From a virus (taxonomy: Duplodnaviria; Caudoviricetes), in the IMG/VR virus record IMGVR_UViG_3300007735_000768, positions 1-60,350 of that record: DNA of 60,350 nucleotides; one strand, given 5' to 3'. A program made the position numbers and the translations under genes. Shown here piece after piece: positions 5,355 through 44,299 of this stretch. Within the stretch, counting starts at the first letter, position 1; each line of letters opens with the position of its first letter. The notes under the pieces were generated by a model. It was not told where the DNA came from and ran no database searches. It saw nothing but the letters and a program-made list of their open reading frames with translations.

Positions 5355-5801
5355 GTGAAAATCACTAAATATGAACATCCTATTGTCCTTGGAATTATCT
5401 CCGCAGTAATCGGAATCGGTGTTGGCGGTTACTTCGCACAAGAAGAAGTAATTGTGAAAGCCAAACCAATCACAAAGAAAGTCGAATTAGTCGGAACGAC
5501 TCCTGCGAGCGCACGAAAACTCGCATTGAGCAAACTCGACGATTTCGGCTGGACAAAAAAACAATGGACATGCCTCAATCGTATGTGGGGCAAAGAGTCA
5601 GCATGGAATTACAAAGCCGCATCGCCTACAAAGGATCATGGAATCCCTCAAAGGCATATGAGTAAAGATACAAAGGCTGAGATTCATGCGTTTATGTCTG
5701 ATCCCGTTAAACAAATTAACTGGGGGTTAGGTTATATCAAGGCGCGTTATGGAAATCCATGCTCTGCGTGGGAATTTTGGCAAGCCAACCATTGGTATTG
5801 A
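5355..5801 (+). CDS. Membrane-anchored lytic transglycosylase (SLT/Rpf-like)
   Basis: N-terminal TM; KESAWN, GIPQ, QINWGLGYIKARYGNPCSAW...WY. Confidence 0.85.
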   Translation: MKITKYEHPIVLGIISAVIGIGVGGYFAQEEVIVKAKPITKKVELVGTTPASARKLALSKLDDFGWTKKQWTCLNRMWGKESAWNYKAASPTKDHGIPQRHMSKDTKAEIHAFMSDPVKQINWGLGYIKARYGNPCSAWEFWQANHWY

Positions 5802-5827
5802 TCATCGCCTGAGTTAAACTTCAAGGC

Positions 5828-6388
5828 ATGACAACCATTATCGCAGTTCAAGGCAAAGACGGAGTGCGATTTGGTGCGGATGCACAAGTCACAAGTGGCA
5901 ACGGGCGCATTGCTAGACATGCACAGATGACCAAGATAACTGAACGCGGTCAGTATGTAATTGCAGGATCAGGCGAGTGCGCACCATGCGACATTGCGCA
6001 ACATATTTGGGAACCACCTGTTCCGAAAGCATCTGATCACACCGACCTATATCACTTCATGATCGCAAAAGTTGTGCCGTCATTGAAAGCATGTTTTAAA
6101 GAGCAAGAATACAAATGGTATGAAGAAGATGAGGAAACAAAATTTGCATTTTTAATCGCACTCGGCGGTCAAGTTTTCGAGTTAGCAGACGACATGAGTA
6201 TCTCGCTCGACTCCAATGGTTTCTATGGAGTCGGTTCAGGAAGTAGTTATGCGATAGGTGCATTGTGCGCTGGTGCAACAATTGAAGAAGCATTGAAAAT
6301 CGCCGCACGAAATGATGCCTATACAAGTGCGCCATTTGTATATTATGATCAAAAGACTCGTCCTAAAACCACGAAGGCGGTAAAATAA
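5828..6388 (+). CDS. Ntn-hydrolase, HslV/proteasome beta-like peptidase
   Basis: N-terminal MTTIIAV (Thr nucleophile), ADAQVT, GVGSGSSYAIGAL. Confidence 0.85.
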   Translation: MTTIIAVQGKDGVRFGADAQVTSGNGRIARHAQMTKITERGQYVIAGSGECAPCDIAQHIWEPPVPKASDHTDLYHFMIAKVVPSLKACFKEQEYKWYEEDEETKFAFLIALGGQVFELADDMSISLDSNGFYGVGSGSSYAIGALCAGATIEEALKIAARNDAYTSAPFVYYDQKTRPKTTKAVK

Positions 6389-6392
6389 GTTT

Positions 6393-6650
6393 ATGGGAAT
6401 AGCATTTGTAACACAGGATGTTGCTCGCTCGATTTATGAATATGCGGGCAAGAATGGTTTGCCTGATTTTAACGAATTGCCCCCGACAGTTCAGATTTCT
6501 TATATTGAAGAAGCAGAAGCGGCGATTAAAACAGTTTGCAAGCATATGGTGTTGCTATCAGGTCAGGTTGATCCGATCGATGTTCGACCATTTGTGCAGT
6601 CGGTGATTCTAGCACTTGCTCATTCACTCGATCCGAGTATCCATGACTGA
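6393..6650 (+). CDS. Hypothetical protein
   Basis: Leaderless-type TAAAAT-N6-ATG start. Confidence 0.55.
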   Translation: MGIAFVTQDVARSIYEYAGKNGLPDFNELPPTVQISYIEEAEAAIKTVCKHMVLLSGQVDPIDVRPFVQSVILALAHSLDPSIHD

Positions 6651-8160: not shown

Positions 8161-9435
8161 ATGCCAACAAGACCCGATCTGAACGAACTAGGCACCAGCG
8201 GCTTACGCCGTAGTGGCGGTTTTATCCATGAGGAATTTTTAACTCAACTACGCGGTAAGCGCGGTCTACTTGTCTATCGTGAAATGGCAGACAACGATCC
8301 TGTTATTGGTTCAATCCTTTACGCGATCGAGAAAGTAATCCTTCGTCTTGACTGGCGCGTTGATCCATATGATGAGTCAGAGGAAGCAAAAGCAATTGCT
8401 GAATTCATCGATGAGTGCATGGAAGATATGTCCGACTCATGGGATCAAACACTTGCATCAATTCTTTCAATGCTCGTTTATGGTTTCTCATTCCATGAAA
8501 TTGTCTACAAGGTTCGCGGTGGCGATTCAAAAGACCCAAAGCGCAATTCAAAACATTCAGACGGAAAGATCGCATGGCGTAAGTTTGCAATTCGATCACA
8601 AGAAACATTAAACAACTGGATGATGGACGAAGATGGCGGTATTCAAGGATTCCGTCAAATGGATCCAACAGGCGGTGGCTTCCGAGAGATTCCTATGGAC
8701 AAAGGTTTGCTATTCCGCACCAATGTCAGCAAGAACAATCCAGAAGGTCGATCACTACTGCGTAACTCATTTAGACCTTGGTATTACAAGCGACGCATTG
8801 AAGAAATTGAAGCGATCGGTATTGAACGCGATCTAGCAGGACTTCCTGTTGCCAAAGTGCCACCTGAGTATTTATCAAGTGGTGCAACTGCGGCACAGCA
8901 AGCCGTTCTTGCAAACATTACTGAAATTGTTCAGAACATTAAGCGAAATGAACAAGAGGGCGTTATCTTCCCAATGATGTATGACGAATCTGGGAAAGAA
9001 ATGTTCTCGCTCGAATTACTTTCATCAGGTGGCTCTCGTCAATTCGATACAGACAAAGTAATTGCTCGTTACGATCAACGAATTTCAATGTCCGTTCTAT
9101 CTGACTTTATCCTTCTTGGACATGAGGCGGTTGGTTCATTCGCACTAGGTTCACAGAAGATGGATTTGTGGACAATGAGCATCGATGCGATCGCTAAGTC
9201 AATTGCAGAGGTTGTTAACCAATACGCAATTCCGCGCCTCTTAAAGTTAAACGGCATGAACACCGAACTTTGCCCTTATCTAACTTACGGACAAGTTTCC
9301 CATGTTGACCTTGGCGAACTTGCCGACTATGTTCAGAAACTAACATCGGCTGGATTGCTGATGCCTGACGAGAACTTGGAAGCATACTTGCGTGAACAGG
9401 CAAGCCTTCCACCTGCGGAGAATACGGTGATCTAA
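8161..9435 (+). CDS. Portal protein (Mu gp29/DUF935-like)
   Basis: NPEGRSLLR, IGIERDLAGLP, GSFALG, IPRLLKLN; first gene of head module. Confidence 0.9.
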   Translation: MPTRPDLNELGTSGLRRSGGFIHEEFLTQLRGKRGLLVYREMADNDPVIGSILYAIEKVILRLDWRVDPYDESEEAKAIAEFIDECMEDMSDSWDQTLASILSMLVYGFSFHEIVYKVRGGDSKDPKRNSKHSDGKIAWRKFAIRSQETLNNWMMDEDGGIQGFRQMDPTGGGFREIPMDKGLLFRTNVSKNNPEGRSLLRNSFRPWYYKRRIEEIEAIGIERDLAGLPVAKVPPEYLSSGATAAQQAVLANITEIVQNIKRNEQEGVIFPMMYDESGKEMFSLELLSSGGSRQFDTDKVIARYDQRISMSVLSDFILLGHEAVGSFALGSQKMDLWTMSIDAIAKSIAEVVNQYAIPRLLKLNGMNTELCPYLTYGQVSHVDLGELADYVQKLTSAGLLMPDENLEAYLREQASLPPAENTVI

Positions 9436-11702
9436 TGTTTGTTGTCCGAAAGGCAGACAATAACTCACCGACTCCACCTCTCAATCCTGACGAAGAAAAT
9501 GTTTCAAAGATTGTTCAACAAGGCATTGGTGATCTTGAAAATGCCGCGATCAGTCGCGAAGTAAAAGATGCAATTGCCTCTCGAAACTATGAGGCGATCG
9601 TAAATGCCTTTCCTTGGGACGAAACAACCAATACTTTAAATTTAACTGCTGACGCATTTGGTAAAACAATTGCAGACAATATTGGCACAGGAATTAAGGC
9701 AGGTTTTAAAGGTCGCTTCGACTACACAGACCCACGATCAATTGCATGGGGAACTGAACAGTCAGCGCGACTTGTTACCGCGGTTACAGACGAAGTTAGA
9801 ACGCAGATTCGTGATGTTATCGGACAGGCATTTACTCAAAACAAAACAGTTGTTGAAACAGCGCGACAACTTCGAACATTTATTGGGCTTAATGCGCGTC
9901 AACAAAACTCACTTGAAAAGTTTATTCAAGCAAACATTGATGCACCTAACTTAGATAAGTTGATCATTGACTATAAGAAGCGCGCTATCAAGTATCGAGC
10001 GAACATGATCGCCCGAACAGAAATTATTACAGCAGAGGCAAATGGTCGCTACCTTGGTTGGACACAAGCGGTCGAGGCAGGATTAGCAGACCCGAAAGGC
10101 ATGAAGCGTTGGAGTGCCGCGATCAGCGAGCGCACTTGCGATACATGCGGTGCAATGAATGGTAAGTCGGTTCAATGGGATCAACCATTTCCAAATGGAG
10201 TATTTAATCCACCCGCTCATGTTATGTGCCGTTGCTCAACATCATTCCTTGATCCTGAGTCAGAGTTAGCGCAAGATTTCATGCCACCTGCCCCTGCGAT
10301 CGTTGCACCACCACGCGAGGACATTCCTGAAAAGATAACTCGGGCGATCAGAGGACTACGCGATTCAACAGCCGCAGTTGAAGCGGCTCATGCAAGCACA
10401 ACACGCGTTTCGGCATTTCAATACGATTCGACAGCAATTGAAAACCTTCATGTTGATGTCGAGAAAGTCGAATTCAATGGTGTGCCATCAACAGAATTAA
10501 GATTCAAGATGACACCTGCCGCATTAAAAGACATTGAAAAGCAAGCGGTTAAGAGTAAAGGCAAGGATTGGTTAGTCAATAAAGAAATAGCGGCGATCGA
10601 TGTCAAGACAGCAGACGGAAAGTTAACATTCTCATCACTTGATCCTGATGCTAGTCAAACATGGACTATTTTAGAACGCAGAACAGTTGGCGATTTAGCA
10701 TGGGATCAACTTGCAAGCACTAACGCAACATATACACGCTATCTTCCTGATGGAACAGCAATTCGAATTATCTCATCTGCTAGAAATGGATACGCATTTC
10801 ACGGAACAACTCGCGTGATCATTCCGGGCAAGCCAACCGCAGAAAAGATTGATGAAATCATGAGCAAGTTAGTGTCGTCTGCTCGTCACTCAACAGAGGC
10901 AGATGTTGACTTGCTAAAAGCAAACCGAATTCTCAGTATCTTCAAACCCGCAGACAAAGACCTTGCTGTAAAAGAGTTTGCAGACAAGAAAAAATATATT
11001 GATGATGTAATTGGCAAATACTGGGGCTTTAAATGGGACGATGTAACTACTGAATTAGATAGTGAAGGTAGATTGCGTTTCTTGCTTCCGCGATCAGTTG
11101 CAGAAAAGATTATGGATAAGACTTCTATTGGTCATATTAACCATTCTTTAAAGTATGGAGTTGTAGGTTCAACAGATGGTTCAACAGTTAAAAACATTGT
11201 TGATTTATTTACCAAAGATGAAAACAAAATGCTCTTGTCAACAACTAATCGTTGGACGCGAGGACTTAACTATGAAGGACAAAGTAGCGTTAAGGATGTA
11301 ACAACGGGTGGCGCGGATTATGTATTTGGTCGCCCCGTTGACAAAGTAAGGGCAGGTTCTTTTCAGAACCTATACCGACTTGAATTTGATGCCGCAGAAC
11401 TATTCCGTCGCACCGATTGGTTTGCATATGCGGCAGATAGTTATGGTGTTCGAAACCCTGCGGCAAAAACATTCTTTAAAGGATCAACAAAGTTCGATGC
11501 CCCTAACTGGTTTGGTGAATTGATGACTGGCGGTAGCAGGGCTGGCGCAGAGATCATGTTTCAAAGCAGTATAGATATGCGTTATGTAACTGCTTTCCCG
11601 ATTCAAGAGAGAATTCAGAAGCCTTTATTTGAGGCATTTTTAAAACTAGGAATTACCGAAATCAACGGCATACCGCTTGATGATTTCTTTAGAACCATAT
11701 AA
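9435..11702 (+). CDS. MuF-family minor head protein with ~480-aa C-terminal extension (putative toxin, ART-like)
   Basis: RANMIARTE, RTCDTC, PPAHVMCRCS MuF motifs; Pro linker; extension with H...LLS...YVF...AEIMF. Confidence 0.85.
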   Translation: MFVVRKADNNSPTPPLNPDEENVSKIVQQGIGDLENAAISREVKDAIASRNYEAIVNAFPWDETTNTLNLTADAFGKTIADNIGTGIKAGFKGRFDYTDPRSIAWGTEQSARLVTAVTDEVRTQIRDVIGQAFTQNKTVVETARQLRTFIGLNARQQNSLEKFIQANIDAPNLDKLIIDYKKRAIKYRANMIARTEIITAEANGRYLGWTQAVEAGLADPKGMKRWSAAISERTCDTCGAMNGKSVQWDQPFPNGVFNPPAHVMCRCSTSFLDPESELAQDFMPPAPAIVAPPREDIPEKITRAIRGLRDSTAAVEAAHASTTRVSAFQYDSTAIENLHVDVEKVEFNGVPSTELRFKMTPAALKDIEKQAVKSKGKDWLVNKEIAAIDVKTADGKLTFSSLDPDASQTWTILERRTVGDLAWDQLASTNATYTRYLPDGTAIRIISSARNGYAFHGTTRVIIPGKPTAEKIDEIMSKLVSSARHSTEADVDLLKANRILSIFKPADKDLAVKEFADKKKYIDDVIGKYWGFKWDDVTTELDSEGRLRFLLPRSVAEKIMDKTSIGHINHSLKYGVVGSTDGSTVKNIVDLFTKDENKMLLSTTNRWTRGLNYEGQSSVKDVTTGGADYVFGRPVDKVRAGSFQNLYRLEFDAAELFRRTDWFAYAADSYGVRNPAAKTFFKGSTKFDAPNWFGELMTGGSRAGAEIMFQSSIDMRYVTAFPIQERIQKPLFEAFLKLGITEINGIPLDDFFRTI

Positions 11703-12110: not shown

Positions 12111-14342
12111 ATGCCTTGGACGATCGAAACAAAAGCACCTGACTGCAAGAGCGGCTATGCCGTTGTTGACGCAAAGGGCAAAACTGTTGGTTGCCATAAA
12201 ACCCGCGCAGATGCCTTATCTCATCAACGCGCACTTTATGTCAATGTAAAGGATGTCACTCAAAAGGACGATCCGACCGCAACCGATGTTCATGTAGACA
12301 CGATCATGCGCCCCTTTAAGATTAAGAAGCCCGCTTTATCAAAGAGCGTAGACACTTTAATTTCACAGCACGACAAACTCCATACTCAAACCGATTCCCC
12401 AAATGATGCACAACTATTCGTTCATCATGCGATCATGGAAGCGATTAGCAAGGCAGGACAAGAGGTAGATTGTTCTTGCGGTGCATGGAGTCAACCTTTA
12501 CTACTTAATAGCGTTTCAACAACCCTTGACGCGCTCGCAAAGGCAGAAAACCCTTCATTGTCACCTGTTGGTCAAATCATTCAAACAGGCATCGATCAAG
12601 GATATAAGTTTGCCGATGTTCTCCACATGCTCGATGTTGGCGGCTACATGATCGTAGTTCGACCAAAAGAAATCGTTGAAGATAGTCAATCCCCAACACT
12701 CGTTGACAAAATCAAAGGATTTATGTCAAAGGAAAAAGCAATTCCCGACTCATTTGTTCCACCACAAGCGGTTCGAGATGAAGCAAAACGCGCCCTTGAA
12801 TGGATAAAAGAAGGACATGCTGGCGCAGGATTTACCGATGTAGGACGCGCTCGCGCCGCCCAACTTGCCAATGGCGAAGGTGTTTCAAGAGAAACCCTCG
12901 CTCGTATGAAATCTTTTCTTGCTCGACATTCAGTTGATGCACAAGGTAAGGGTTATCACACAGGCGAGGCTGGGTATCCGTCACCCGGTCGGGTTGCGTT
13001 TGCCGCATGGGGTGGGTCTGCGGCAAAGACTTGGGTAGATAAACTGTTTCGACAGTATGATCTTGCAAAATCAACAGGCGAGATTGAAACAGTATTTAAA
13101 TCTAATGAAAAGCGATTCACACTCGGACCTTGGTATATCCCTGATCGACAAGATGCGCATGGGGAATGGACAGATAGCGAAGAATTACAAACTGCTCTAT
13201 GGGATTATGTGAAGTCAGGCGATCGTAGAATCCGTTTGCAACATCGTAAGAGTGTTGTTGCAGGTGAATGGGTTGAAACAATGACATGGCCGTATCCCGT
13301 AACAGTTCCAATGATGAAAGCAGACGGCACAGAAGCAGATGTTACTTATCCAAGTGGAACAGTATTCATGGGAGTGCAATGGGAACCTTGGGCATGGGAA
13401 TTAGTTAAAGCAGGAAAGTTAACTGGTTATTCGATCGGTGGTAAATCAGAAAGATTGATGGTTGATTTTCCAGAGCAAGATGATATTATTAACATGCAGG
13501 TAGCAAAACATGGAACGCACGATCAGAAAACTCATGGTCGTCGTGGTGGCATACCTCAACAAGGTGGCGCTCGCGCAGGTATGGGCGATATTAAAATCAC
13601 CGATGCAATGGCGGCTGAGATGCAAGGCGGTTCTGCCGCACCATTCTTAGTCAAAAATGAAAATGGTGATTGGGAATTCACACCTGAGCGTCAAGCATTA
13701 CATGATCGTATAGTCAAAGAATCTGTTGATGGCGTTCCAAGTTCCGCAGACCCAACATATGTTGTTATGGGTGGTGGACCCGCGGCAGGTAAATCAACAA
13801 TTCTTGAAAGCGGTCAAGTATCACTTCCAAAGAACACAGTTGAAGTCAACGCCGATACTTGCAAGACAAAACTTCCTGAATGGGATACGGCAGGTGCTAA
13901 TCGCGCTTCTGTTACTCATGCAGAATCGTCATATCTTGCAAAGCGAACACAAGCGGCGGCGTTCGAGCGTAAGCAAAACATCGTGCTTGACGGAACAGGT
14001 GACACATCTCCTGCATCTATGACAGGCAAAATCGACACAGCAAGAGCGGCAGGTTACAAAGTCGAAGCGCACTATGTCACATTGCCAACGGACATGGCTG
14101 TGGCAAACGCACTTGCACGAGGACAAAAGACAGGTCGCTTTGTTCCAGAAGAAGTGATCAGGACAACCCACGCAGGAGTATCAACAACATTTCCGCAAGT
14201 CGCGGGTAAGTTTGACTCAGTTACTCTTTACGACACAACAGTATTTGGTGCAACAAAAGTAATTGCCACAGGCGGTAAAGGTGCATTAGACATCATAGAT
14301 AAAGTCGCCTATGACGCATTTCTAGCGAAAGGTAACGCATGA
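12111..14342 (+). CDS. Multidomain prohead protease (XkdF-like) fused to C-terminal zeta-toxin-like P-loop kinase
   Basis: YIPDRQDAHGEW...LQH...WELVKAGKLTGYSIGG protease; MGGGPAAGKS, VNAD, NIVLDGT, RFVPEEVIR kinase motifs. Confidence 0.85.
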   Translation: MPWTIETKAPDCKSGYAVVDAKGKTVGCHKTRADALSHQRALYVNVKDVTQKDDPTATDVHVDTIMRPFKIKKPALSKSVDTLISQHDKLHTQTDSPNDAQLFVHHAIMEAISKAGQEVDCSCGAWSQPLLLNSVSTTLDALAKAENPSLSPVGQIIQTGIDQGYKFADVLHMLDVGGYMIVVRPKEIVEDSQSPTLVDKIKGFMSKEKAIPDSFVPPQAVRDEAKRALEWIKEGHAGAGFTDVGRARAAQLANGEGVSRETLARMKSFLARHSVDAQGKGYHTGEAGYPSPGRVAFAAWGGSAAKTWVDKLFRQYDLAKSTGEIETVFKSNEKRFTLGPWYIPDRQDAHGEWTDSEELQTALWDYVKSGDRRIRLQHRKSVVAGEWVETMTWPYPVTVPMMKADGTEADVTYPSGTVFMGVQWEPWAWELVKAGKLTGYSIGGKSERLMVDFPEQDDIINMQVAKHGTHDQKTHGRRGGIPQQGGARAGMGDIKITDAMAAEMQGGSAAPFLVKNENGDWEFTPERQALHDRIVKESVDGVPSSADPTYVVMGGGPAAGKSTILESGQVSLPKNTVEVNADTCKTKLPEWDTAGANRASVTHAESSYLAKRTQAAAFERKQNIVLDGTGDTSPASMTGKIDTARAAGYKVEAHYVTLPTDMAVANALARGQKTGRFVPEEVIRTTHAGVSTTFPQVAGKFDSVTLYDTTVFGATKVIATGGKGALDIIDKVAYDAFLAKGNA

Positions 14343-14551
14343 CAACCGATACACCACGAATCGAACGCATGTATCTTGAAATCCTTTTGGGGATTGATCA
14401 AAAAGATTCATTACTCAAACCATTAACCGATGCTGAAAAGGCTCAATGGGGTCGCATCGACAAACAAGTGAAAGAGATTCGAGCAATGGGTGGGGAATTT
14501 GAAATCCCTAACGAAGTGCCTCAATCAAATCCAGTTGCGGTCGTTGAATGA
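14339..14551 (+). CDS. Small protein, candidate antitoxin of the zeta-like domain
   Basis: ATGA-coupled to zeta-like gene; 70 aa, helical-looking. Confidence 0.5.
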   Translation: MTTDTPRIERMYLEILLGIDQKDSLLKPLTDAEKAQWGRIDKQVKEIRAMGGEFEIPNEVPQSNPVAVVE

Positions 14552-14922
14552 TCACTTTATTTAAACATGGTTCTCATGATCAGAAAACGCATGGGCATGC
14601 TGGCTTAGTGCCTCATGGTTCTGCGGGGGGCGATGCAGTTCACAGAAATTTAGGCATGCACCTTGCACCAATTAGCGCAAAGGTTGATGGGATCAAATCA
14701 AATCCAACGATCGCAGGAGATTTAGCACAAGCAAAAGTCACACTTCATGCCGCATCAATCGCACCGACTGCTATGGCGAGCGCACAAGCATTAGGCAACA
14801 CTCGTTTAGCATTATCAAGTGCGGCGCGGAAAGTTACTGGAACAAATACCCCGTTAGCCATTACACTTGCTGATATTGGCAAAGAAGCACAACGACTTTC
14901 TGACTCATTGTTGCGACCATAG
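14548..14922 (+). CDS. Hypothetical protein with N-terminal KHGxHDQKTHG motif
   Basis: Motif shared with the linker before the zeta-like domain. Confidence 0.65.
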   Translation: MITLFKHGSHDQKTHGHAGLVPHGSAGGDAVHRNLGMHLAPISAKVDGIKSNPTIAGDLAQAKVTLHAASIAPTAMASAQALGNTRLALSSAARKVTGTNTPLAITLADIGKEAQRLSDSLLRP

Positions 14923-14934
14923 GAACGGACGATC

Positions 14935-15438
14935 ATGGAAACTGAATGGACATTAGTTCAACCTTCAATGCCTGAAATGGAAATGGAAGAAGTCGTAGAC
15001 CTTCAAAAGAGCCTACGCACACTCCTTGCCAACACAGTAACTATTTCTTTACGCGCTCAGGGATACCATTGGAATGTTCGCGGTATTCATTTCGCCGCAT
15101 ACCATAAGTTATTTGGTGACATCTATGAGGACATTCATGAATCGATCGATCCAACAGCAGAGTGGTTGCGCAAATTAGGTTACGAAGCACCATACACACT
15201 TGGCGAGTTCATGAATGATCGCGACATTGAAGAACCGATCAAGCAGATTAGTTTGGCTATGCAGATTCAAACATTACTGCAAGGCATCGAGCAGTTAGAA
15301 GAATGCACAGAACATTGCTTAGAGGTTGCAACAGCCGAGGACGAACAAGGTCTGATCAATTTCCTTGCAGGTCGCCTAGACATGCTTGAAAAGTGGGAAT
15401 GGCAATTGAACACATCTGTAAATGAAGGGTTTATGTAA
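14935..15438 (+). CDS. dps: Dps-family (ferritin-like) protein
   Basis: YHWNVRGIHFAAYHKLF, D.TAEWLRKLG, C-terminal EKWEWQL. Confidence 0.9.
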   Translation: METEWTLVQPSMPEMEMEEVVDLQKSLRTLLANTVTISLRAQGYHWNVRGIHFAAYHKLFGDIYEDIHESIDPTAEWLRKLGYEAPYTLGEFMNDRDIEEPIKQISLAMQIQTLLQGIEQLEECTEHCLEVATAEDEQGLINFLAGRLDMLEKWEWQLNTSVNEGFM

Positions 15439-15723
15439 ATGAGTATTGTGGTTAATGACGGCAATAGCACACCGATCAATGTTCATGGCATAGTGATCCA
15501 AAAGAGCCTATCTACGGGTTCAATGGTTACATGGCAAGCATCGGGTGGTTCTGCAACTGGCAAAATTGAACGCATTGTTCGCGAAGGCAGTTTGAACATT
15601 CCTAATTCTAAATTTACAATCAACGCAGAAAAAGATGACCCTGCGGTTTTGATCAGAGTTTATCGTGACGGCAAACCAACGGATACTTTGGTCGGTCATA
15701 AAATGTCTACTTTAAAAGGTTAA
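15439..15723 (+). CDS. HVA1/DUF2945-like Tudor-domain protein with short leader
   Basis: GSMVTWQASGGSATGKI...DDPAVLI...VGHKMSTL. Confidence 0.7.
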   Translation: MSIVVNDGNSTPINVHGIVIQKSLSTGSMVTWQASGGSATGKIERIVREGSLNIPNSKFTINAEKDDPAVLIRVYRDGKPTDTLVGHKMSTLKG

Positions 15724-15725
15724 CT

Positions 15726-16160
15726 ATGAGCATTGTTATCAATGATGGCAACACAGCCCCAGTAGCGGTTCATCGTGAAGCGGCAAAGGCGGCATGCCCT
15801 ACTGCAACAAAAGACATTGCCGTAAATCTTGCTCATCGAGGCAAAGCGATCAAGACAGCCGCTTATGGTCCTTTAAATCCATCAGAACCAAACAATGAGT
15901 TTTGGCAAGCAAAGGCTGATAACTGGGATATTTCAATTGCTGAGGCAAAGACATCTCGTTGTGGCAATTGCGCGGCTTTCATTCAAACAAAGCAAATGCT
16001 TGACTGCATCGATGCAGGGTTATCCGCTGGCGATTCCAACTCAGAAAACGCGTGGGATACGATCAAGGCTGGTAATCTTGGCTACTGCGAAGCATTTGAC
16101 TTCAAGTGCGCAAGTAAAAGAACTTGCGACGCATGGATAGCGGGGGGACCTGTAAAATGA
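15726..16160 (+). CDS. Cys-rich conserved phage protein with same leader as previous gene
   Basis: CPTAT, YGP, CGNCAAF, GYC..FDFKC...RTCDAW. Confidence 0.7.
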   Translation: MSIVINDGNTAPVAVHREAAKAACPTATKDIAVNLAHRGKAIKTAAYGPLNPSEPNNEFWQAKADNWDISIAEAKTSRCGNCAAFIQTKQMLDCIDAGLSAGDSNSENAWDTIKAGNLGYCEAFDFKCASKRTCDAWIAGGPVK

Positions 16161-16351
16161 GTATTAAAAGCACTAAGTTGCGCAAGTATCTAACTGTTCC
16201 TGTTCTACATTCATCAGGAAAGCGCAAGAACTTAATCGTTAAGACGATCACAGATCAGAACACATTTACTGTTGGCACATACAAAGGCACAACAGCATCA
16301 GTTACTCGTCAGACACCTTCAACAAAGAATGGCACAGTCTTCATCGACTAA
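16157..16351 (+). CDS. Small beta-rich protein, paralogue A (start revised to 16157)
   Basis: ATGA overlap; IVKTITDQNT shared with next gene. Confidence 0.65.
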   Translation: MSIKSTKLRKYLTVPVLHSSGKRKNLIVKTITDQNTFTVGTYKGTTASVTRQTPSTKNGTVFID

Positions 16352-16356
16352 TTCTT

Positions 16357-16542
16357 ATGGCAAAAACCATTCAGGTTGGAACCGCGCTTCATGTCAAGAC
16401 AACTGCTGGCAGAATTCGTCATGCAATTGTTAAAACAGTTACTGATCAAAACACTTTAACTGTTAGCGTAGGCAAAGGAACAGCGTTCTCTGTAACTCGC
16501 GCATCATCGACTGTTACTCGCGGCACTCAATTTAACCAGTAA
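16357..16542 (+). CDS. Small beta-rich protein, paralogue B
   Basis: IVKTVTDQNT...KGT..SVTR shared with previous gene. Confidence 0.65.
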   Translation: MAKTIQVGTALHVKTTAGRIRHAIVKTVTDQNTLTVSVGKGTAFSVTRASSTVTRGTQFNQ

Positions 16543-16543
16543 C

Positions 16544-17098
16544 ATGACTAACCCCAACCGCATTTCAAACGGCGAGGTTATTGCTCGCAAGTATATTTCT
16601 CGAACAGGTTACAAGTTCGGTGATGATACTTACCAAGAAACCGCCATGGGTTTACTAACGCGTTGGACACCTAACTTTTCTGCAACAGGTTTGACTTATA
16701 CAGGAACAGGCGAAACGCACCCGACCTACAACAGTTACTATGTTAAGCATCTTCAAATGGTGACATTTATTATTAAAGTCAACCTATCAACAGTTACTAA
16801 TTTTGGCACAGGGCAATTCAGCGTTGAACTTCCCTTTTTACCTTTAAACGGATTTGCAAGTCATTTCCCTGCATGGTGCTGGGTTGACCCGACGCAACCC
16901 GCAGACGAATTAAACGGGCATATAGTCCTACAAGCCGATCATCTACCTAATACCAAAACCCTTGACTTGCATTGGTATCAGGCAACCACAGCCGCCCCAA
17001 AACCTATTATAGAAAAGTTATTTGTTCAAGGCGATCCCGTCACTTTGACAACCAGTTCCTTGTTGTATATCAACGGCACTTATATTTCAAACGAATAG
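16544..17098 (+). CDS. Putative virion protein (fibre C-terminal-like beta domain)
   Basis: WTPNF, GTGQFSVELPF, INGTY ending typical of fibre tip domains. Confidence 0.5.
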   Translation: MTNPNRISNGEVIARKYISRTGYKFGDDTYQETAMGLLTRWTPNFSATGLTYTGTGETHPTYNSYYVKHLQMVTFIIKVNLSTVTNFGTGQFSVELPFLPLNGFASHFPAWCWVDPTQPADELNGHIVLQADHLPNTKTLDLHWYQATTAAPKPIIEKLFVQGDPVTLTTSSLLYINGTYISNE

Positions 17099-17222
17099 AG
17101 TTATGGGACACGCGTTTCAAGCACAATTTCCTCAACCATATGTTAGCCTTTTACTACCGAAATTTGGGCTGACCTCTATGGTTGAGGTAGGCGTAAAAAC
17201 CAAATAGGGGTAAGGAGAAATT

Positions 17223-18098
17223 ATGGCGAAAGCACCAAAGATGGTTCGCCTTTCAATCGATGAAACTAGCGGCGTTGATCACCCTGCACATTTAACCGAA
17301 GGTTGGATGATCATGAAATCAGCAAGTGTTGATGAAATCGATGCCGTAATTGATTCTTTAACCGAAACACAAACTCAATCATCAAAGGAGGACTCAGTGT
17401 CTAATGAGAATGAAGTTGTAACTGAGGACGCAGTTGTAGCCGAGGCGCCAGTCGCAGAAGCAACAGAAACTGAGTCACCAGCAGACGACAAAGACGCAAA
17501 GATCGCCGAACTTGAAGCCGAATTAGAAAAGGCTAAGAAGATGCCACCATTCATGTCTCCTGACAAGATGGACGGCGAAAGCGATGAAGAATACAAGAAG
17601 CGCATGAAGAAGATGGAAGAAGAAAAGGCAATGAAGAAGTCTGAGGACACAGTTGAGAAGTCAATTGAATCCGTAGAAAAAGCATTTGCATTTGAAAAAG
17701 CACGCGCTGACGAAGCGGTTGCACTTCTCCAAAAAGAACGCAATGAGCGCGCAGATGCAGAAGCCATTGCTAAAGCAAAGAATTGGAGCAACCTTCCACT
17801 AGATGCGGAAAAAGTTGGTCCAGCACTTCGTCAATTGTCACTAATTAACGAAGACCTAGCAAAAAGCATTGAAGGCATTCTTGAAGCCGTCAACGCACAA
17901 GCACAAACATCAAATCTATTTGCGGAAATCGGCAAGTCAGTCGATGCAGGAACAGACGCTTACTCACGCATGACAGCGCTCGCTAAGGCGGCAGTTGAAT
18001 CAGGTGTTGCGAAGTCAATGGAACAGGCAATGGCAGATGTAGCGATCGCAAACGCAGATCTCTATTCACAGTATCTAACCGAGAAGGGTGCTAAGTAA
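17223..18098 (+). CDS. Capsid scaffolding protein with N-terminal protease-like strand (IDETSGVDHPAH)
   Basis: Acidic coiled-coil with many xxK-A/S motifs; directly upstream of capsid genes. Confidence 0.8.
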   Translation: MAKAPKMVRLSIDETSGVDHPAHLTEGWMIMKSASVDEIDAVIDSLTETQTQSSKEDSVSNENEVVTEDAVVAEAPVAEATETESPADDKDAKIAELEAELEKAKKMPPFMSPDKMDGESDEEYKKRMKKMEEEKAMKKSEDTVEKSIESVEKAFAFEKARADEAVALLQKERNERADAEAIAKAKNWSNLPLDAEKVGPALRQLSLINEDLAKSIEGILEAVNAQAQTSNLFAEIGKSVDAGTDAYSRMTALAKAAVESGVAKSMEQAMADVAIANADLYSQYLTEKGAK

Positions 18099-18507: not shown

Positions 18508-19485
18508 ATGCCACAACCAAATGTAAATAGCACACACATTGATGCTATTCTCACAAACATTTCTGTTGCTTATCTACAAAAGCAGGACAACTTTATCGCT
18601 GATAAGGTTTTCCCTGTAATTCCAGTAGATAAGAAATCGAACAAGTATTTCGTCTACACAAAGAATGACTGGTTCCGCGATGAGGCACAACGCCGCGCCG
18701 ATGCAACCGAGTCTGCTGGTAGCGGATACTCACTCACAACAGCAACTTACAACACAGATGTCTTTGCATTCCACAAGGATGTAGGCGATCAGACAGTTGC
18801 TAACTCAGATGCACCATTGAACCCACTTCGCGAAGCCGCAGAATTCGTTACACAGCGTCTATTGCTTCGTCGTGAATTGCAGTTCGTATCTGACTTCTTC
18901 ACCACAGGTGTATGGGGAACAGATGTAACAGGTGTTGCAGGTTCACCATCAACAGGCGAAACAAAGCAGTGGTCAGATTACTCAGCATCAGACCCAATCA
19001 ATGACATCGAAGCGGCAAAGGCGTCAATCCTTTCAACAACAGGTATCGAGGCAAACACACTCGTTCTTGGTTACGATGTATTCCGTCAGTTGAAGAATCA
19101 CCCTGACCTAGTTGATCGCATCAAGTACACATCTTCACAGACCATCACAACCGACATGCTCGCGGCAATGTTTGACATTCCACGCGTTATGGTTGCAAAG
19201 GCTGTAAAGGCAACAAACAACGAAGGTGCCGCTGGCGCATACTCATTTGCTTATGGCAAGGGCGCGCTACTTTGCAATGTCGCAACAAACCCAGGAGTTC
19301 TAACTCCTTCTGCTGGATACCAGTTCTCATGGACTGGCGTTTCAGGCGGTCTTGGTGCAAACATTGGAACATCTTCATTCCGTATGGAGTCAATCAAGGC
19401 AACTCGTGTCGAGGCTGAAATGGCATTTGACAACAAGGTAGTTGCTAACGATCTTGGCTACTTCTGGAACACAATCGTTGCTTAA
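18508..19485 (+). CDS. Major capsid protein
   Basis: HIDAILTNISVAY...IADKVFPVIPV, WSDYSASDPINDI, LKNHPDLVDRIKY; strong terminator follows. Confidence 0.9.
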   Translation: MPQPNVNSTHIDAILTNISVAYLQKQDNFIADKVFPVIPVDKKSNKYFVYTKNDWFRDEAQRRADATESAGSGYSLTTATYNTDVFAFHKDVGDQTVANSDAPLNPLREAAEFVTQRLLLRRELQFVSDFFTTGVWGTDVTGVAGSPSTGETKQWSDYSASDPINDIEAAKASILSTTGIEANTLVLGYDVFRQLKNHPDLVDRIKYTSSQTITTDMLAAMFDIPRVMVAKAVKATNNEGAAGAYSFAYGKGALLCNVATNPGVLTPSAGYQFSWTGVSGGLGANIGTSSFRMESIKATRVEAEMAFDNKVVANDLGYFWNTIVA

Positions 19486-23557: not shown

Positions 23558-24262
23558 ATGTTTTTTAAAAAGAAAGAACCAGTAATCACTTTTGTTCCTT
23601 TCTTATCGTTTCATTTATCTTCTCAACCAGTTCTTGCCTCGCAGGTTGTTCCAGAATGGTATAAAAAAACAGCAAGTTACATACCCGAAGAAAAAAAATT
23701 AACTTCCGAGAGAACTATTAAACGGTGCATGCCTGTTTTCGATGCAATGAGCGCGGGTTATATTATTTCTACGCCTTGCGATATAAGTGTGACTCAAATA
23801 GACGGAGAGCCACAATACGAACCTTCAATGAGAGACACTATTCAATATCATCCTCAAAAACAAGCAACTTTTCATCCTAAAGCACATCCTTTTCAATTCC
23901 CAAAATTTATTAACGCTTGGGGCATAAAAACCCCCAAAGGATACTCATGTTTATTTATTGCACCTATGCACAATGAAAATCCTTGGTTTGAATGTTTAGC
24001 AGGTCTTGTAGACACCGATCGTTACGATGCGCCCGTGAATTTTCCATTTGTTTTAAAAGACCCAAAATTTGAAGGCATTATTCCAGCAGGAACGCCAATG
24101 ATTCAAGTCATTCCTTTTAAGCGAGAAGATTGGGGTTACGGAATTGGAAATGATAAAGATGTTCTCAATGCGCAGGAAACAGATAAAGAATTAAGTATCG
24201 TTTTTTTTGATAGATACAAACGACTATTCCGAGATAAAAAAATATGGAATAGAAAACTTTAG
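23558..24262 (+). CDS. Conserved phage protein (PEWYK...TIKRCMP..DA...GY family, DUF6065-like)
   Basis: TPKGYSCLF, GLVDTD, GTPMIQVIPFKRE; AT-rich island. Confidence 0.7.
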   Translation: MFFKKKEPVITFVPFLSFHLSSQPVLASQVVPEWYKKTASYIPEEKKLTSERTIKRCMPVFDAMSAGYIISTPCDISVTQIDGEPQYEPSMRDTIQYHPQKQATFHPKAHPFQFPKFINAWGIKTPKGYSCLFIAPMHNENPWFECLAGLVDTDRYDAPVNFPFVLKDPKFEGIIPAGTPMIQVIPFKREDWGYGIGNDKDVLNAQETDKELSIVFFDRYKRLFRDKKIWNRKL

Positions 24263-24942
24263 TTATAGTTTTTTTTGACCCATTTATTTTTCTTATACCA
24301 ACCGCTAAAAGAAAGCGTTGATATTCTGTGATTCTTTCTTCCTTCTTTAACGAGTTGATCGTTATCTTCTTTTGATAACCAATCCTCTCGTTTGAAAGGA
24401 ATAATTTGATAAATTGGAGTTCCTTTTTTAATAATGCCTTCAAAATTGTTATCAATAAAAAAAGGTAGCCTACCCGTGTGCATAATTCCATCAGTATCAA
24501 CTACCGCGCTCATTGTTGTAAATGGTAAATCAAATCTATTTAAAGGATGAGTGATCAAAGAACTATAACCCTTAGGCGTTTTCATGAAATAAGGAATAAG
24601 CCATGTCAATCTTTGTTGAGAGTGACCAGCGGGTGTTGGAAGTAACATAGTTGAGTCCATTGGTCTTTGTTCAATAGGAATTAACTCGGGAGTATGCCAA
24701 GAAAATGTTTTACTACCATCGGGTTTAGTTTCTACTAAAATGTCACACCACAATTCGGCAATGTAACCTGTTGTCAATCCGTCCAAAAAAGGAACACATC
24801 TTTTTAAGGTTTGAGATGTTGGGTGACTGTCATAAGTTAACGGGGTTTGCTTATACCAATTAGGTATGTAATTTTTTGCAGGTTTTGGATTATTAAATAC
24901 ATCGCCATTGCCAAATTCAATAATAGGTTTTTTATTAAACAT
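24259..24942 (-). CDS. Paralogue of previous (PNWYK...TLKRCVP..D...GY)
   Basis: TPKGYSSL, VVDTD, GTPIYQIIPFKRE; convergent with 23558 gene. Confidence 0.7.
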   Translation of the reverse strand: MFNKKPIIEFGNGDVFNNPKPAKNYIPNWYKQTPLTYDSHPTSQTLKRCVPFLDGLTTGYIAELWCDILVETKPDGSKTFSWHTPELIPIEQRPMDSTMLLPTPAGHSQQRLTWLIPYFMKTPKGYSSLITHPLNRFDLPFTTMSAVVDTDGIMHTGRLPFFIDNNFEGIIKKGTPIYQIIPFKREDWLSKEDNDQLVKEGRKNHRISTLSFSGWYKKNKWVKKNYN

Positions 24943-24946
24943 TTTG

Positions 24947-25663
24947 TTACTCCATAATATTCTTTTTAATTGATTTTGAAATTGCCTTTTGCAAGCCATT
25001 CTTATTAAATCTTGAATACAAAGAAGTCAAACTTGATGACTTTTGATATTTCTTGTAATCAATACAAGCCTGAGATAGATTCATTAAATCTTGATCAAAA
25101 TGAAAGCGTTTTAAGATAACAGGTTTCTCCGTATTAAATTTAACATATGCGATAGGGTCTCCTTTTTTAATGCTTACAAAATTGACATTTTCATTTAATT
25201 GTATTGCGGCTTCTACGGGTCTAAACCAAGAATTTATATTAAAAGTTCCCGGAACGAAATGCCCATTAAAAACTTGAGGGTGTAAATAAGCGGGCATTGC
25301 TACCATTTCTAACGGCTCATCAGACCAAAAAATCCAATTGTTTAATATAGAAAAAGTAAAGGCATTTTCAACTGTCGCTTCTTTTTTTGTTACAAATTTA
25401 ATAGTTTCTAAATCGCTTTCAGGCAATTGCATAATGCCTAAAGTCGAATGTAACCCAAAAGTAACTTCAAACGGAGATTCTAAAACAAAACTATTTTTGA
25501 CAGTATTTAGAAAAGCGTGACATTGAAACCAATTGTCGTGCTTGTTGGTTTTATTTTGCTTATATTTTATTGATGAAAGAACAGATTTCGGTTCATCATA
25601 TAAAAGATGCAAAGAAGCAAAGTCGGTACTTGGATACCAAGGTGACCAATAAACTATTTTCAT
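24947..25663 (-). CDS. Conserved phage protein, distant relative of the two previous
   Basis: PGTFNINSWFRP, IKKGDPIAYVKF. Confidence 0.65.
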   Translation of the reverse strand: MKIVYWSPWYPSTDFASLHLLYDEPKSVLSSIKYKQNKTNKHDNWFQCHAFLNTVKNSFVLESPFEVTFGLHSTLGIMQLPESDLETIKFVTKKEATVENAFTFSILNNWIFWSDEPLEMVAMPAYLHPQVFNGHFVPGTFNINSWFRPVEAAIQLNENVNFVSIKKGDPIAYVKFNTEKPVILKRFHFDQDLMNLSQACIDYKKYQKSSSLTSLYSRFNKNGLQKAISKSIKKNIME

Positions 25664-26215
25664 TTAAATAAAGTCAATATTGATTACACAACGGTAGTCA
25701 TGCTTAATTGGTTTTGAAGAGGCATGATATTGCAACCCGTCAAAAATAACTCCACGACCCATTCTAGGGCTTACCCTCAATGCTTCCGTTAAATCCTTTT
25801 TTTCAATATTTATGCCTTCATGCCAAAATTGTTCAAAAAAAACAGTATCTCCGTCCGAATCATTTACATAGTATAAAAAAACTTTATGTGGAGTATTTTG
25901 ATCAACATGAGGTGCAAGATAATCGCTTGATGTTGCCCTTGTTGTTATATTTGATTTAATTCGAATAATTTCATTAACCGCAATTGAATGTTTTAATGTA
26001 AAATTTTTAAACAGACGCAAGATTCCCGCAGATGTGTTTGTGTCGGCAAACACGCTATGAACAAATTGAAAAGAGTGATCGTTTTCTAGTGATTCTTTAG
26101 AAGAACGCTCAATATTTGTCTGAGGCTGAAATTGCCATACTCCATGCGTCAACAAACCTTGTTGAAATTCTAAAGCGGATTCATAGGGGATAAAATTGTC
26201 ATCTTGAATAATCAT
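25664..26215 (-). CDS. 2OG-Fe(II) oxygenase superfamily protein
   Basis: PHVD...LYYVNDSDGDT.FF...IFDGLQYHAS...R.VIN (HxD...H...R). Confidence 0.85.
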   Translation of the reverse strand: MIIQDDNFIPYESALEFQQGLLTHGVWQFQPQTNIERSSKESLENDHSFQFVHSVFADTNTSAGILRLFKNFTLKHSIAVNEIIRIKSNITTRATSSDYLAPHVDQNTPHKVFLYYVNDSDGDTVFFEQFWHEGINIEKKDLTEALRVSPRMGRGVIFDGLQYHASSKPIKHDYRCVINIDFI

Positions 26216-42046: not shown

Positions 42047-42109
42047 AATCGAGGTAACAAAATAAACAAATCTTCAAATAAGAAGAACCCCACCCAAGTA
42101 GCAAGTCGG

Positions 42110-44299
42110 GTGGGGTTTTTTCTTTCCGTTTTGTCACTAGCGTTTTCATTCAATGTTGCGTTAGATTCTACTGACGCGTCTGCAAGTTGTGTCACAACCG
42201 CTCAATCAATTGCAACAGCGCAAACCGCGCCTGTCACTTTAAACGAAACTGTTACGGCGACAACAGAAGGACAAACAGTTACATCGACTCCTGTGATCGT
42301 TCAAGATACTTGCGGCGGCGATGATGTTTCGTATCAAGTTGCACTTCCAACAGCAGTTAACTTTGGTGGAACAACTTACAACGCAGTTTATGCAACAACT
42401 AACTCAACAATTATTTTTGGGCGACAAGACAACACTTATCACACATGGCCGTCTAGTCCTTCAATTTCAGTTAACGCCTATGACTGGGTTGTTTTAAATC
42501 CTGCCAATCAGCCTCAATATCCCGCAGGTTGGAAAGCGGAAGATGAGCATTTAATTATTTCTTCAAGTCAGGCGGGTTTTCAAGTAGACCTTGCTGTTCG
42601 ACCATATGGTGCAAATGCCGCGGGAACGCCTTTGTCTACGATCGTTGTAACTGCCGCGATCAATCCTGACAACACTTTAAGTATTACTTATCTGTCTGAT
42701 GTTCAGGCGGGGTTGCAGACTCGAACTGGCGTTGTAATGCCTGACGGAACTCATCTGACTCTTGAACAAGCGGGAATGACTCGAGTATATGTTGCTCCTG
42801 TGGTAACGCCTGAATCAATTGCCACGCCGTCACCAACTCCAACACCCGAACAAACCCCCACACCGACACCGACCCCAACAGTAGAGCCGACACCCACACC
42901 CATTCCATCGCCTACTCCTTCACCATCGCCAACGAATTTGCCCGATCCAACGCCATCTCCAAGTCCGACATCCGAACCAACGCAGTCGCCAACTCCGACT
43001 CCTTCGCCAACAACAGAGCCTTTACCTTCACCAACTCCTTCTCCAACGAGTCCTGCCCCAACACCAACTCCGTCTGAACCTGCTGTAACTCCAACTCCAA
43101 CGCCTTTACCACAGCCTTCCAATAGTTCTCCGTCGCCTGAACCATCTCCTACTCCTTCCGTCGAACCTTCTCCAACTCCGACTTCAACACCTGAACCTGC
43201 ACCTGTTCCCACACCAACGCCTGTTCCAACGCCCGAACCCGCGCCTCAACCTGTTCCCGTTCCTCAGCCCGTTCCCGAACCTTTGCCTTCTCGTCCTGAA
43301 CCACCGATAGCACCACCAACACAACCAACGGCGCCAGTAGAGCCAATGCCACAACCATTGCCACAACCTGAACCTGCCCCTGAACCTGCACCCGAACCCC
43401 CTGTTGTTGACAACAATCCTACTCCTGAACAACCGCCCGCAGAAGCCCCATCAGAACCCGTAGAACCGCCACCAGCGGTCGAAGAACCCCCAGTTGCTAT
43501 TCCTGACCCCGAAGGATCAATTGGCGAGCCTCCTACGCCTGTGGAAGAAGCGCCAGCCCCACCAACAGAAGAACCGCCAGCAGTTGAAGAGCCAGCACCA
43601 ATCGACCCACCTGCCGAGGAACCTGTTGCCCCCGAGTTGCCACCTGAAATACCAGCAGAACCACCATTAGTAGAACCAGAGCCAAGTAATCCGTCACCTG
43701 AACCATTAGAGCCTCCTGTTGTTACGGCGGAAACATGGGAACCGCCCGTTGCACCTGAAGAATACTTGAGTTCTGAAGAAATACAAGCCTACAAAGAAAT
43801 TGGCATTGTTCCTAACAGCGTTGATCAATTACCAACAGACAAACCGAAGTTACCTGACGCATCAGAATTAGTTCCACGCGTTCAACAAGATGTTAAAGGT
43901 GTTGAAAACGGCGGCATTGAATTCTTTGGAACAAAAGATCAACCACAAGTTATTGGCGAAGACGGCAAATTAACACCGCCGCCACCACCGCCTAATTCGG
44001 GATTACCAATCGATCCCGATGCGATCACAACCGAGGAAACATTTCTTGGTCAAGTCGGTGGAGTGACTTTTAACTCTCCCGATGTTGCAGTTGTTGTAGA
44101 ATTAGTCGAAGTCAGCGTTCCTGACTTGATCGATGCGATCCCAAGCGCAGGTGAGGCAATTCAAGCAATAAATACCGCTTATGTTGCGCTCGCCAATGTT
44201 GGTAATGATATGAGTCCCGTGACTCGTAAAAAGGCTAAGAAAGTCTTAGTCGGAACCATTATCGCTAGTCCTTTATTTAGAAGGAAGTTTGGGGAGTAA
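42110..44299 (+). CDS. Secreted/surface proline-rich protein
   Basis: Signal peptide, globular N-domain, ~300-aa PT/PS/PE stalk, basic-hydrophobic C-terminus. Confidence 0.75.

Follow-up and report, generated by a model that had tools for sequence, protein, structure and literature searches.

A portable N-terminal leader on unrelated proteins of a phage head-gene island: a candidate capsid-targeting propeptide

INTRODUCTION

Why should two adjacent phage genes that encode unrelated proteins begin with the same peptide? The question is raised by the head-gene block of an uncultured tailed phage (Duplodnaviria; Caudoviricetes) represented by the IMG/VR record IMGVR_UViG_3300007735_000768, which is complete at 60,350 bp and carries direct terminal repeats (hereafter the window, meaning the whole stretch of DNA that was analyzed). 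The first gene, open reading frame (ORF) 1, encodes a small Tudor domain and the second, ORF2, a Cys-rich domain; each domain is preceded by a closely similar N-terminal leader. A preliminary description of this DNA had pointed to the common start and had proposed a second class of cleavable capsid-targeting leader.

The precedent for such a role is the capsid targeting sequence (CTS) of phage T4, which is found on the internal proteins IPI-III and Alt and is removed by the prohead protease gp21, with Glu as the cut residue. Here we argue that the leader is, with high probability, a selected and portable module. From comparison of sequences, we give an even chance to the more specific reading that it is a CTS-like propeptide, loading free-standing cargo into the procapsid and cut at a Lys.

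A COMMON LEADER ON TWO UNRELATED NEIGHBORS

ORF1 begins MSIVVNDGNSTPINVHGIVIQKS and ORF2 begins MSIVINDGNTAPVAVHREAAKAA. Over residues 1-16, 11 of 16 positions are identical; the remainder of the two proteins is unrelated, and the BLASTP match between them (E 4e-07) is carried by these first 16 residues. A six-frame scan of the whole window places the leader motif at these two sites only. The two N-termini score 9/12 identical, against a maximum of 7/12 in 200,000 comparisons of shuffled N-termini. Beyond His16 they diverge, and a Lys is reached five to six residues further on, as K22-S in ORF1 and K21-A in ORF2. The preliminary description was thus correct in placing one leader on two adjacent unrelated proteins, in front of a Tudor-like and a Cys-rich domain respectively, and in observing that the likeness ends ahead of a K-S/K-A site; that Lys junction proves to be conserved in both protein families.

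The likeness begins exactly at the ATG. The 30 nucleotides (nt) upstream of the two start codons are unrelated (6/30 matching), and 5 of the 11 identical residues are encoded by different codons. Together these two facts indicate that it is the peptide that is conserved, and not the trace of a recent DNA duplication or of a copied translation-start region. A Shine-Dalgarno-like AAGGG/AAAGG, read from the sequence, lies 7-13 nt 5' of both ATGs.

Several other kinds of N-terminal element were considered and set aside. A lipoprotein or secretion signal is disfavored by the lack of a hydrophobic core (the leader reads NDGN..P) and by the residues ahead of the Cys, namely K-A-A in the window and, in relatives, frequently K-A-D or K-A-E; a lipoprotein signal is further disfavored by the presence of the same leader before domains that have no Cys. 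For a leader of the ribosomally synthesized and post-translationally modified peptide (RiPP) kind, no modifying enzyme gene was seen among the ORFs of the block that were read. An RNA-level explanation was rejected on the synonymous differences between identical leader residues.

THE SAME LEADER ON OTHER DOMAINS

If the leader is portable, it should be found on other domains in related phages, a check that the preliminary description had proposed. The leader was back-translated into a degenerate DNA pattern with which sequence collections were scanned, and four related contigs matched (L004, L005, L076, and L077). L005 has the same leader pair as the window. In L077 the gene order is that of the window, except that the slot after the Dps/ferritin-like gene holds a 115-residue leader protein in place of the Tudor protein; this consists of the leader, K-HGSHNQSTHG, a Gly-rich linker, and a KOW-motif domain (23.2 bits in Pfam against a cut-off of 22.3). 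Its BLASTP likeness to ORF1 is confined to residues 1-21, of which 15 of 21 are identical. A protein search with residues 1-40 of this L077 protein led to P0168, in which the same leader and motif are followed by an unrelated helical part without a Pfam family; P0168 itself had no match in IMG/VR. With Tudor, Cys-rich, KOW, and helical carriers, the leader is seen on four different modules.

The two remaining contigs differ by loss. L076 has neither the Dps nor the Tudor gene, and its leader-bearing Cys-rich gene stands between the gene of a 122-residue K-HGSH protein and the scaffold gene. In L004 the Tudor gene is missing, and the Cys-rich gene, with its leader, comes immediately after the Dps stop codon. 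Comparison of L004 3804-3863 (minus strand) with window positions 15380-15800 shows the Tudor gene to be gone exactly from one leader ATG to the next, as recombination between the two leader-coding repeats would produce.

These relatives also bear on what kind of part the leader is. The proposal of a second class needs correcting, since the leader and the K-HGSH motif occur in one protein. In the L077 protein and P0168, and with another leader type in an L085 protein, the leader stands directly before K-HGSH(D/N)Q..HG, so that the two are combinable parts rather than alternatives.

A separate observation concerns a helical domain of ~65 residues (MK..K.L..LR...EF..IE..V...G), which precedes the Tudor domain in many free-standing proteins (P0131, P0136, P0139-P0143, P0146, P0147, P0154, and P0157) and stands ahead of the K-HGSHNQ motif in L085 (2214-2819). 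As a third kind of N-terminal module, this domain may likewise be exchangeable at the front of proteins.

MATCHED WITHIN GENOMES, DIFFERENT BETWEEN LINEAGES

A wider comparison took in 80 IMG/VR loci encoding the Cys-rich domain, with the N-termini of all same-strand, non-overlapping ORF pairs compared within each locus. Identity of at least 7/12 was found in 8 of 36,085 pairs, and five of these eight are adjacent island pairs, representing three leader types. The pairs of the window, L005, and L077 have MSIV[VI]NDG.. as their leader. In L085, MAIFLGDY.I.GKR is common to a 109-residue K-HGSHNQ protein and a 344-residue protein with the Cys-rich domain and DUF5824; in L144, MFLY[KN]SA.N is common to a 163-residue K-HGSHNQ protein and a 396-residue Tudor polyprotein. 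The other three pairs score 7/12, which is also the shuffled maximum, and resemble noise.

What was seen in the window recurs in all five genomes: the likeness sets in at the ATG, only 6-9 of the 30 nt before it match, and each pair has 7-13 identical residues, 3-6 of them with different codons. Between the lineages that carry the three leader types, the capsid protein is 82-88% identical, the Cys-rich domain 67-73%, and the scaffold 48-57%. The leader is swapped as a unit between lineages and yet kept matched inside one genome.

THE LYSINE JUNCTION

Is the Lys that follows the leader also a conserved feature? Junctions were counted in 120 listed relatives of the Cys-rich protein (of 665), of which 89 have a short and 30 a long N-terminal extension. 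K-A lies no more than 2 residues from the first Cys in 77 of the 89 short-extension proteins, and the residue two before the Lys is V, L, or I in 75 of those 77; among proteins with a long extension, K-A is missing from 29/30. In an alignment of 72 relatives, most of them free-standing, K21 and A22 of ORF2 reach at least 90% conservation. At the other end of the domain, the final residue is K or R in 37/39 Cys-rich proteins that end within 3 residues of GGP, and fused forms run on as GGPV(T)KA.... For the Tudor family, K[ASGT] lies at most 9 residues upstream of the domain in 34/40 proteins.

Similar junctions follow the domain of the XkdF-type prohead protease: ...INMQVA-K-HGTHDQKTHG in the window, ...MEKA-ACP in L009, and ...VAKA-ANKCP in L101. 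The HGSH(D/N)Q motif itself occurs in 10 of 154 loci, and in 17/17 distinct contexts it is preceded by Lys, mostly with hydrophobic residues two to three positions further up. We infer that hydrophobic-x-Lys followed by a small residue or His is a processing site; the Lys-Ser cut of HK97 offers an analogue.

Two further observations belong to the junction. The extended motif K-HG(S/T)H(D/N)Q.(S/T)H(G/A) is found at domain junctions and near the N-termini of head-island proteins, usually followed by a Gly/Lys/Arg-rich stretch; loci with K-HG(S/T)H(D/N)Q include the window, L076, L077, L083, L085, L116, L132, and L144, with up to four copies in L116. A letter-string search for HGSH(D/N)Q within a limited set of papers returned no relevant one. 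The scaffold-like protein, for its part, has a strongly conserved N-terminal stretch of 33 residues (...ETSGVDHPAHL.EGW; positions in Table 1), ending hydrophobic-hydrophobic-K-S, the same form as the proposed leader junction.

THE DOMAINS BEHIND THE LEADER

ORF1 matches PF11160 (Hva1_TUDOR) over residues 27-79 with 37.9 bits against a gathering cut-off of 24.1 (E 2e-09). An AlphaFold2 model of the protein is a beta-barrel, with residues ~25-94 at a predicted local distance difference test (pLDDT) score of 77-91; residues 1-7 and 10-21 score below 50 and are without secondary structure. In this predicted structure the leader is outside the Tudor fold, which speaks, for ORF1, against its being integral to the domain. 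Foldseek comparison of the model with the PDB gave no match at E <= 0.001, the rows returned being weak Tudor, SH3, and KOW-like ones, including Cryptococcus CNAG_02591 (4p5n). The search for relatives found 43 proteins of similar length.

Elsewhere, the Tudor domain usually has a different partner. Among the 69 IMG/VR loci that encode an ORF1 relative, the domain stands after, and in frame with, an HK97-type prohead protease motif in 60; for L030, the sole locus checked, Pfam bore out the combination of Peptidase_S78 and Tudor. Three loci, one each, place it after an XkdF-like domain, after a MuF-associated domain, and together with the Cys-rich domain in a polyprotein, and four more are short or truncated. 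Named phages give further cases: in Limnohabitans phage DC31 the Tudor domain lies inside a 405-residue scaffold-like protein adjoining the capsid gene, and in Roseobacter phage CRP-811 inside an 816-residue protein, labeled major capsid protein in GenBank, that has a MuF-associated domain at its start. A search of a limited set of papers for Hva1 Tudor domains in phages found none.

The Cys-rich domain of ORF2 has 7 invariant Cys, and the protein ends ...GGPVK. It matches no Pfam family at E <= 0.1. Protein searches returned 665 related clusters, with at least 599 stretches in IMG/VR, and the atlas clusters are 100% viral. GenBank labels some relatives "high potential iron-sulfur protein" (HiPIP). 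This label could not be confirmed: there is no Pfam match and no solved relative, and when a profile of 72 ORF2 relatives was searched against PDB sequences, the lowest E was 0.16, with none below 0.1 and no HiPIP match. The AlphaFold2 model of ORF2 (mean pLDDT 51.5) is of too low a quality to support a fold search or to assess the leader.

The Cys-rich domain too is widely fused. It stands immediately behind the XkdF domain in L009 and L101, occurs in polyproteins of up to 1,639 residues, and is often joined to a C-terminal Tudor domain or DUF5824; PF11160 is present on 13 of the 120 listed relatives in precomputed Pfam assignments, with Tudor C-terminal in the fusions read. Homologues of both domains thus usually do without the leader, being joined in its place to proteins of the prohead protease, MuF-like, or scaffold-like kinds. 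Given that Tudor and Cys-rich domains are fused in most phages to proteins built into the procapsid, the free-standing, leader-bearing form is the exception.

In Actinomycetia phage DSL-LC01 and other lineages (L099, L105, L119, and L133 among other loci, and L001 at 5719-6453), the Cys-rich domain lies inside long polyproteins and is flanked on both sides by (P)V/I-T-A-A in place of K-A. These flanks may mark where a different protease cuts.

CARGO LOADING AND ITS RIVALS

How might such a module act? In the mechanism that we favor, the 16-residue peptide and the short stretch up to the conserved Lys would make up a portable propeptide on free-standing accessory proteins, these being encoded in a variable head-module island between the XkdF-protease gene and the scaffold gene. 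The propeptide would let Tudor and Cys-rich modules, and in relatives KOW and helical ones, enter the assembling procapsid. The XkdF-type prohead protease would then remove it at a junction of the form hydrophobic-x-Lys / (Ala/Ser/Gly/His). We infer the virion location, the cleavage at Lys, and the targeting role alike.

Several points weigh against this proposal. Not all island genes have the leader: the Dps gene, the two small paralogues, and the 184-residue ORF are without it. In L144 the Cys-rich protein starts differently from its two leader-matched neighbors, and L076 has a single leader-bearing protein. The residue two before the Lys in ORF2 is Ala, as in only 2 of the 77 relatives. When the leader was compared with the N-terminus of the capsid protein, with the tail that closes the XkdF protein at its C-terminus, and with the 743-residue polyprotein, nothing rose above shuffles (p 0.095 to 0.99); among all ORFs of the window the top scores were 30 and 33, with a median shuffled maximum of 32. 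On the same grounds, the idea that the leader is a copy of another head protein was dropped. No other protein of the phage, neither scaffold nor capsid, is leader-like beyond chance, which leaves the leader without a nameable receptor. In the cultured relative Arthrobacter phage Laroye the corresponding position is occupied by an island that comprises a fused 2H/XkdF protein (labeled RNA ligase), an RNase, and small ORFs and that has no common leader, so that the position of a gene there is no proof that its product is cargo. Finally, a search of a limited set of papers for the specificity of XkdF proteases found none.

A further difficulty comes from the 124-residue protein encoded from 14548, which reaches a Lys junction after five residues; whatever happens at the junction needs no long leader. 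This same protein favors an alternative in which the leader is a propeptide recognized by the protease and nothing more, delaying folding, activity, or metal loading until the prohead protease cuts it, with no address function and with any incorporation achieved by another route. The best-supported feature, the hydrophobic-x-Lys junction at domain borders, speaks for this alternative, and so does the lack of a receptor-like match. A bare cut site, however, leaves 16 further residues unaccounted for, residues that are matched among neighbors and replaced jointly between lineages, and in relatives with short leaders ~11 residues suffice. We think this alternative unlikely, while taking it seriously.

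Another possibility is that the leader remains uncleaved and serves as a common binding or assembly tag outside the capsid, for example in pairing the Tudor and Cys-rich proteins or in docking several small proteins on one host or phage partner. The frequency of fusions between the two domains, in 13/120 listed relatives, would suit such pairing, and matching of leaders within a genome fits a common partner. The same leader is nevertheless found on KOW and helical modules and before the K-HGSH junction motif, its lone carrier in L076 has no leader-bearing partner, and all of the comparative context indicates the head interior; we rate the tag a little lower still.

The common start might also be a neutral by-product of the way genes enter the island, through duplication of a neighbor's start or recombination between gene starts. 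The island is highly variable, and genes have been swapped or lost exactly at leader boundaries in L004, L076, and L077. What makes this very unlikely is that the likeness begins at the ATG, excluding the ribosome-binding region, that identical residues often have different codons, that the pattern is repeated with three different leaders, and that among orthologues the leader is kept about as well as the domain. It is barely credible that the opening 16-22 residues form a strand belonging to each domain, since the two domains are unrelated and both are widespread without the leader, which is itself unstructured in the ORF1 model (pLDDT <50).

A second recurrent peptide in the head block deserves mention in its own right. 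The N-terminus of the capsid protein, MPQPN[VI]NS[TV]H[IV]DAIL (18508-18570), recurs at the C-terminal end of the XkdF-protease protein in L085 (874-2217) and L144 (13-492) as PSVNSVH[IV]DTI(A/M)KP, followed there by a basic tail, and as TATDVHVDTIMRP near the N-terminus of the 743-residue protein (12285-12308). In the protease proteins this motif could be an address signal mimicking the N-arm of the capsid protein. It bears no likeness to the leader.

RELATION TO KNOWN SYSTEMS

The T4 CTS resembles the leader in being a short, portable N-terminal peptide common to unrelated head-encoded proteins and ending at a junction that, here, could be a prohead-protease site. The sequence differs, as do the putative cut residue (Lys) and the protease, which is of the XkdF type (Peptidase_S78_2) and not of the gp21 type. 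The phage differs too, with a genome of ~60 kb, a phrog_1005 capsid, Arthrobacter phages as nearest cultured kin, and head genes that are not T4-like. The leader type moreover changes between close lineages, and packaging and cleavage are here proposed by analogy.

Encapsulins likewise use short terminal cargo-loading peptides, which direct cargo, including ferritin-like proteins, into a shell of the HK97 fold. Here, in contrast, the setting is a complete tailed phage with portal, MuF protein, tail genes, and terminal repeats, and the Dps-like protein is without the leader.

In staphylococcal phage 80alpha the capsid and scaffold proteins and the host protein L27 have a common N-terminal motif that is cut by the host protease Prp between F and A, and the motif is present on non-homologous proteins of other phages too (PMC5744158). 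The likeness lies in neighboring head-module proteins with a common short N-terminal peptide, whose removal is known for 80alpha; the difference is that the 80alpha motif copies a host protein, whereas no host match was found here, and that the carriers here are accessory proteins and not capsid or scaffold. The leader DNA pattern had 0 matches across 185,579 prokaryote species, each represented by a single genome, a set outside which the host may lie.

Polyvalent proteins deliver accessory domains by fusion to MuF, portal, or protease domains (PMC5512222). Accessory or effector domains riding in the head are a point in common; the window's XkdF plus Zeta-toxin polyprotein and its MuF-domain protein fit the scheme, as do the fused Tudor and Cys-rich domains of other phages. 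In the window, however, Tudor and Cys-rich are separate genes, for which the common leader would replace the covalent link.

GENOMIC SETTING

The features of the head block are collected in Table 1. The only protease domain found in it is Peptidase_S78_2. Two small ORFs lie between the gene of the 743-residue polyprotein and the Dps/ferritin-like gene, and the scaffold-like gene keeps its position in all relatives examined. The nearest cultured capsid proteins, at 52-59% identity, belong to Arthrobacter phages of ~60 kb; a DNA search with 14300-17200 against cultured phages found no match.

Table 1. Features of the head-gene block and conserved scaffold N-termini (positions refer to the window unless a locus is named)
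Feature	Position	Strand	Basis or remark
Mu-type portal	8161-9435	+	Pfam Portal_Mu 4.1e-45
755-residue protein with MuF domain	9435-11702	+	Pfam Phage_Mu_F 3.4e-14
743-residue polyprotein: N-terminal part, XkdF-type prohead protease domain (residues 326-448), junction, Zeta-toxin/P-loop kinase domain	12111-14342	+	Pfam Peptidase_S78_2 3.6e-11, Zeta_toxin 1.9e-27
Junction ...INMQVA-K-HGTHDQKTHG inside the 743-residue polyprotein	13506-13538	+	Motif position
124-residue protein, start MITLF-K-HGSHDQKTHG (motif 14563-14595)	14548-14922	+	ORF reading
Dps/ferritin-like protein, without leader; first gene of variable island	14935-15438	+	Pfam Ferritin 4.6e-14, phrog_3636
ORF1, 94 residues: leader and Hva1-type Tudor (small beta-barrel) domain	15439-15723	+	PF11160 E 2e-09
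Leader of ORF1, codons 1-16 (MSIVVNDGNSTPINVH)	15439-15486	+	Variable stretch GIVIQ and Lys22 next, to 15504
ORF2, 144 residues: leader and Cys-rich domain	15726-16160	+	Protein and IMG/VR searches
Leader of ORF2, codons 1-16 (MSIVINDGNTAPVAVH)	15726-15773	+	REAA, Lys21, Ala22 next, to 15791
Two tandem small paralogues (16157-16351, 64 residues; 16357-16542, 61 residues), without leader	16157-16542	+	ORF reading
184-residue ORF, without leader, between small paralogues and scaffold-like gene			ORF reading
Scaffold-like protein, 291 residues; downstream border of variable island	17223-18098	+	phrog_13547
Conserved scaffold N-terminus, window	17223-17330		
Conserved scaffold N-terminus, L085	4263-4370		
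Conserved scaffold N-terminus, L144	4648-4750		
Conserved scaffold N-terminus, L157	10525-10640		
130-residue head protein, between scaffold-like and major capsid genes			
Major capsid protein	18508-19485	+	phrog_1005, 5e-98

Some neighbors of the leader genes merit separate note. The Dps/ferritin-like gene, immediately 5' of the pair of leader genes, is shared by L004, L005, and L077 and missing from L076, L085, and L144. The two small paralogues have ...VKT[IV]TDQNT[FL]TV... in common and differ in copy number among relatives, being present in L004 and L077 and absent from L076. The 743-residue fusion of XkdF protease and Zeta-toxin/P-loop kinase is a candidate head-delivered effector.

Outside the head block, 24001-26000 has a guanine-plus-cytosine (GC) content of 0.33, against ~0.44 elsewhere, and three minus-strand ORFs (24259-26215) in a genome otherwise on the plus strand; it may be a recently acquired cassette. 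At 42001-44000 the GC content is 0.50 with a strongly negative GC skew (-0.25), overlapping a 729-residue ORF (42110-44299).

IMPLICATIONS

A broader picture can be offered tentatively, as possible but on balance doubtful. Abundant freshwater phages, probably of actinobacteria, might use a two-part head-cargo code: a lineage-specific, interchangeable leader and a hydrophobic-x-Lys junction, often K-HGSH(D/N)Q..HG with a Gly/Lys-rich linker, at which XkdF would release the cargo. Whatever protein bore both parts would be loaded and then delivered with the DNA, the island would be a fast-changing library of injected proteins (Tudor, KOW, Cys-rich metal-binding, and Zeta-type kinase), and the leader would co-evolve with its receptor, possibly the scaffold, which evolves fast.

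Should the leader be an address tag, it would provide a sequence handle for proteins that are packed, and probably injected, by a large group of uncultured phages. The CTS principle of T4 would then extend to a different protease family and a small genome, and it would be clear why Tudor and Cys-rich domains stand free here and are fused to protease, MuF, or scaffold proteins elsewhere. The leader could also supply a short loading peptide for capsids of the HK97 type.

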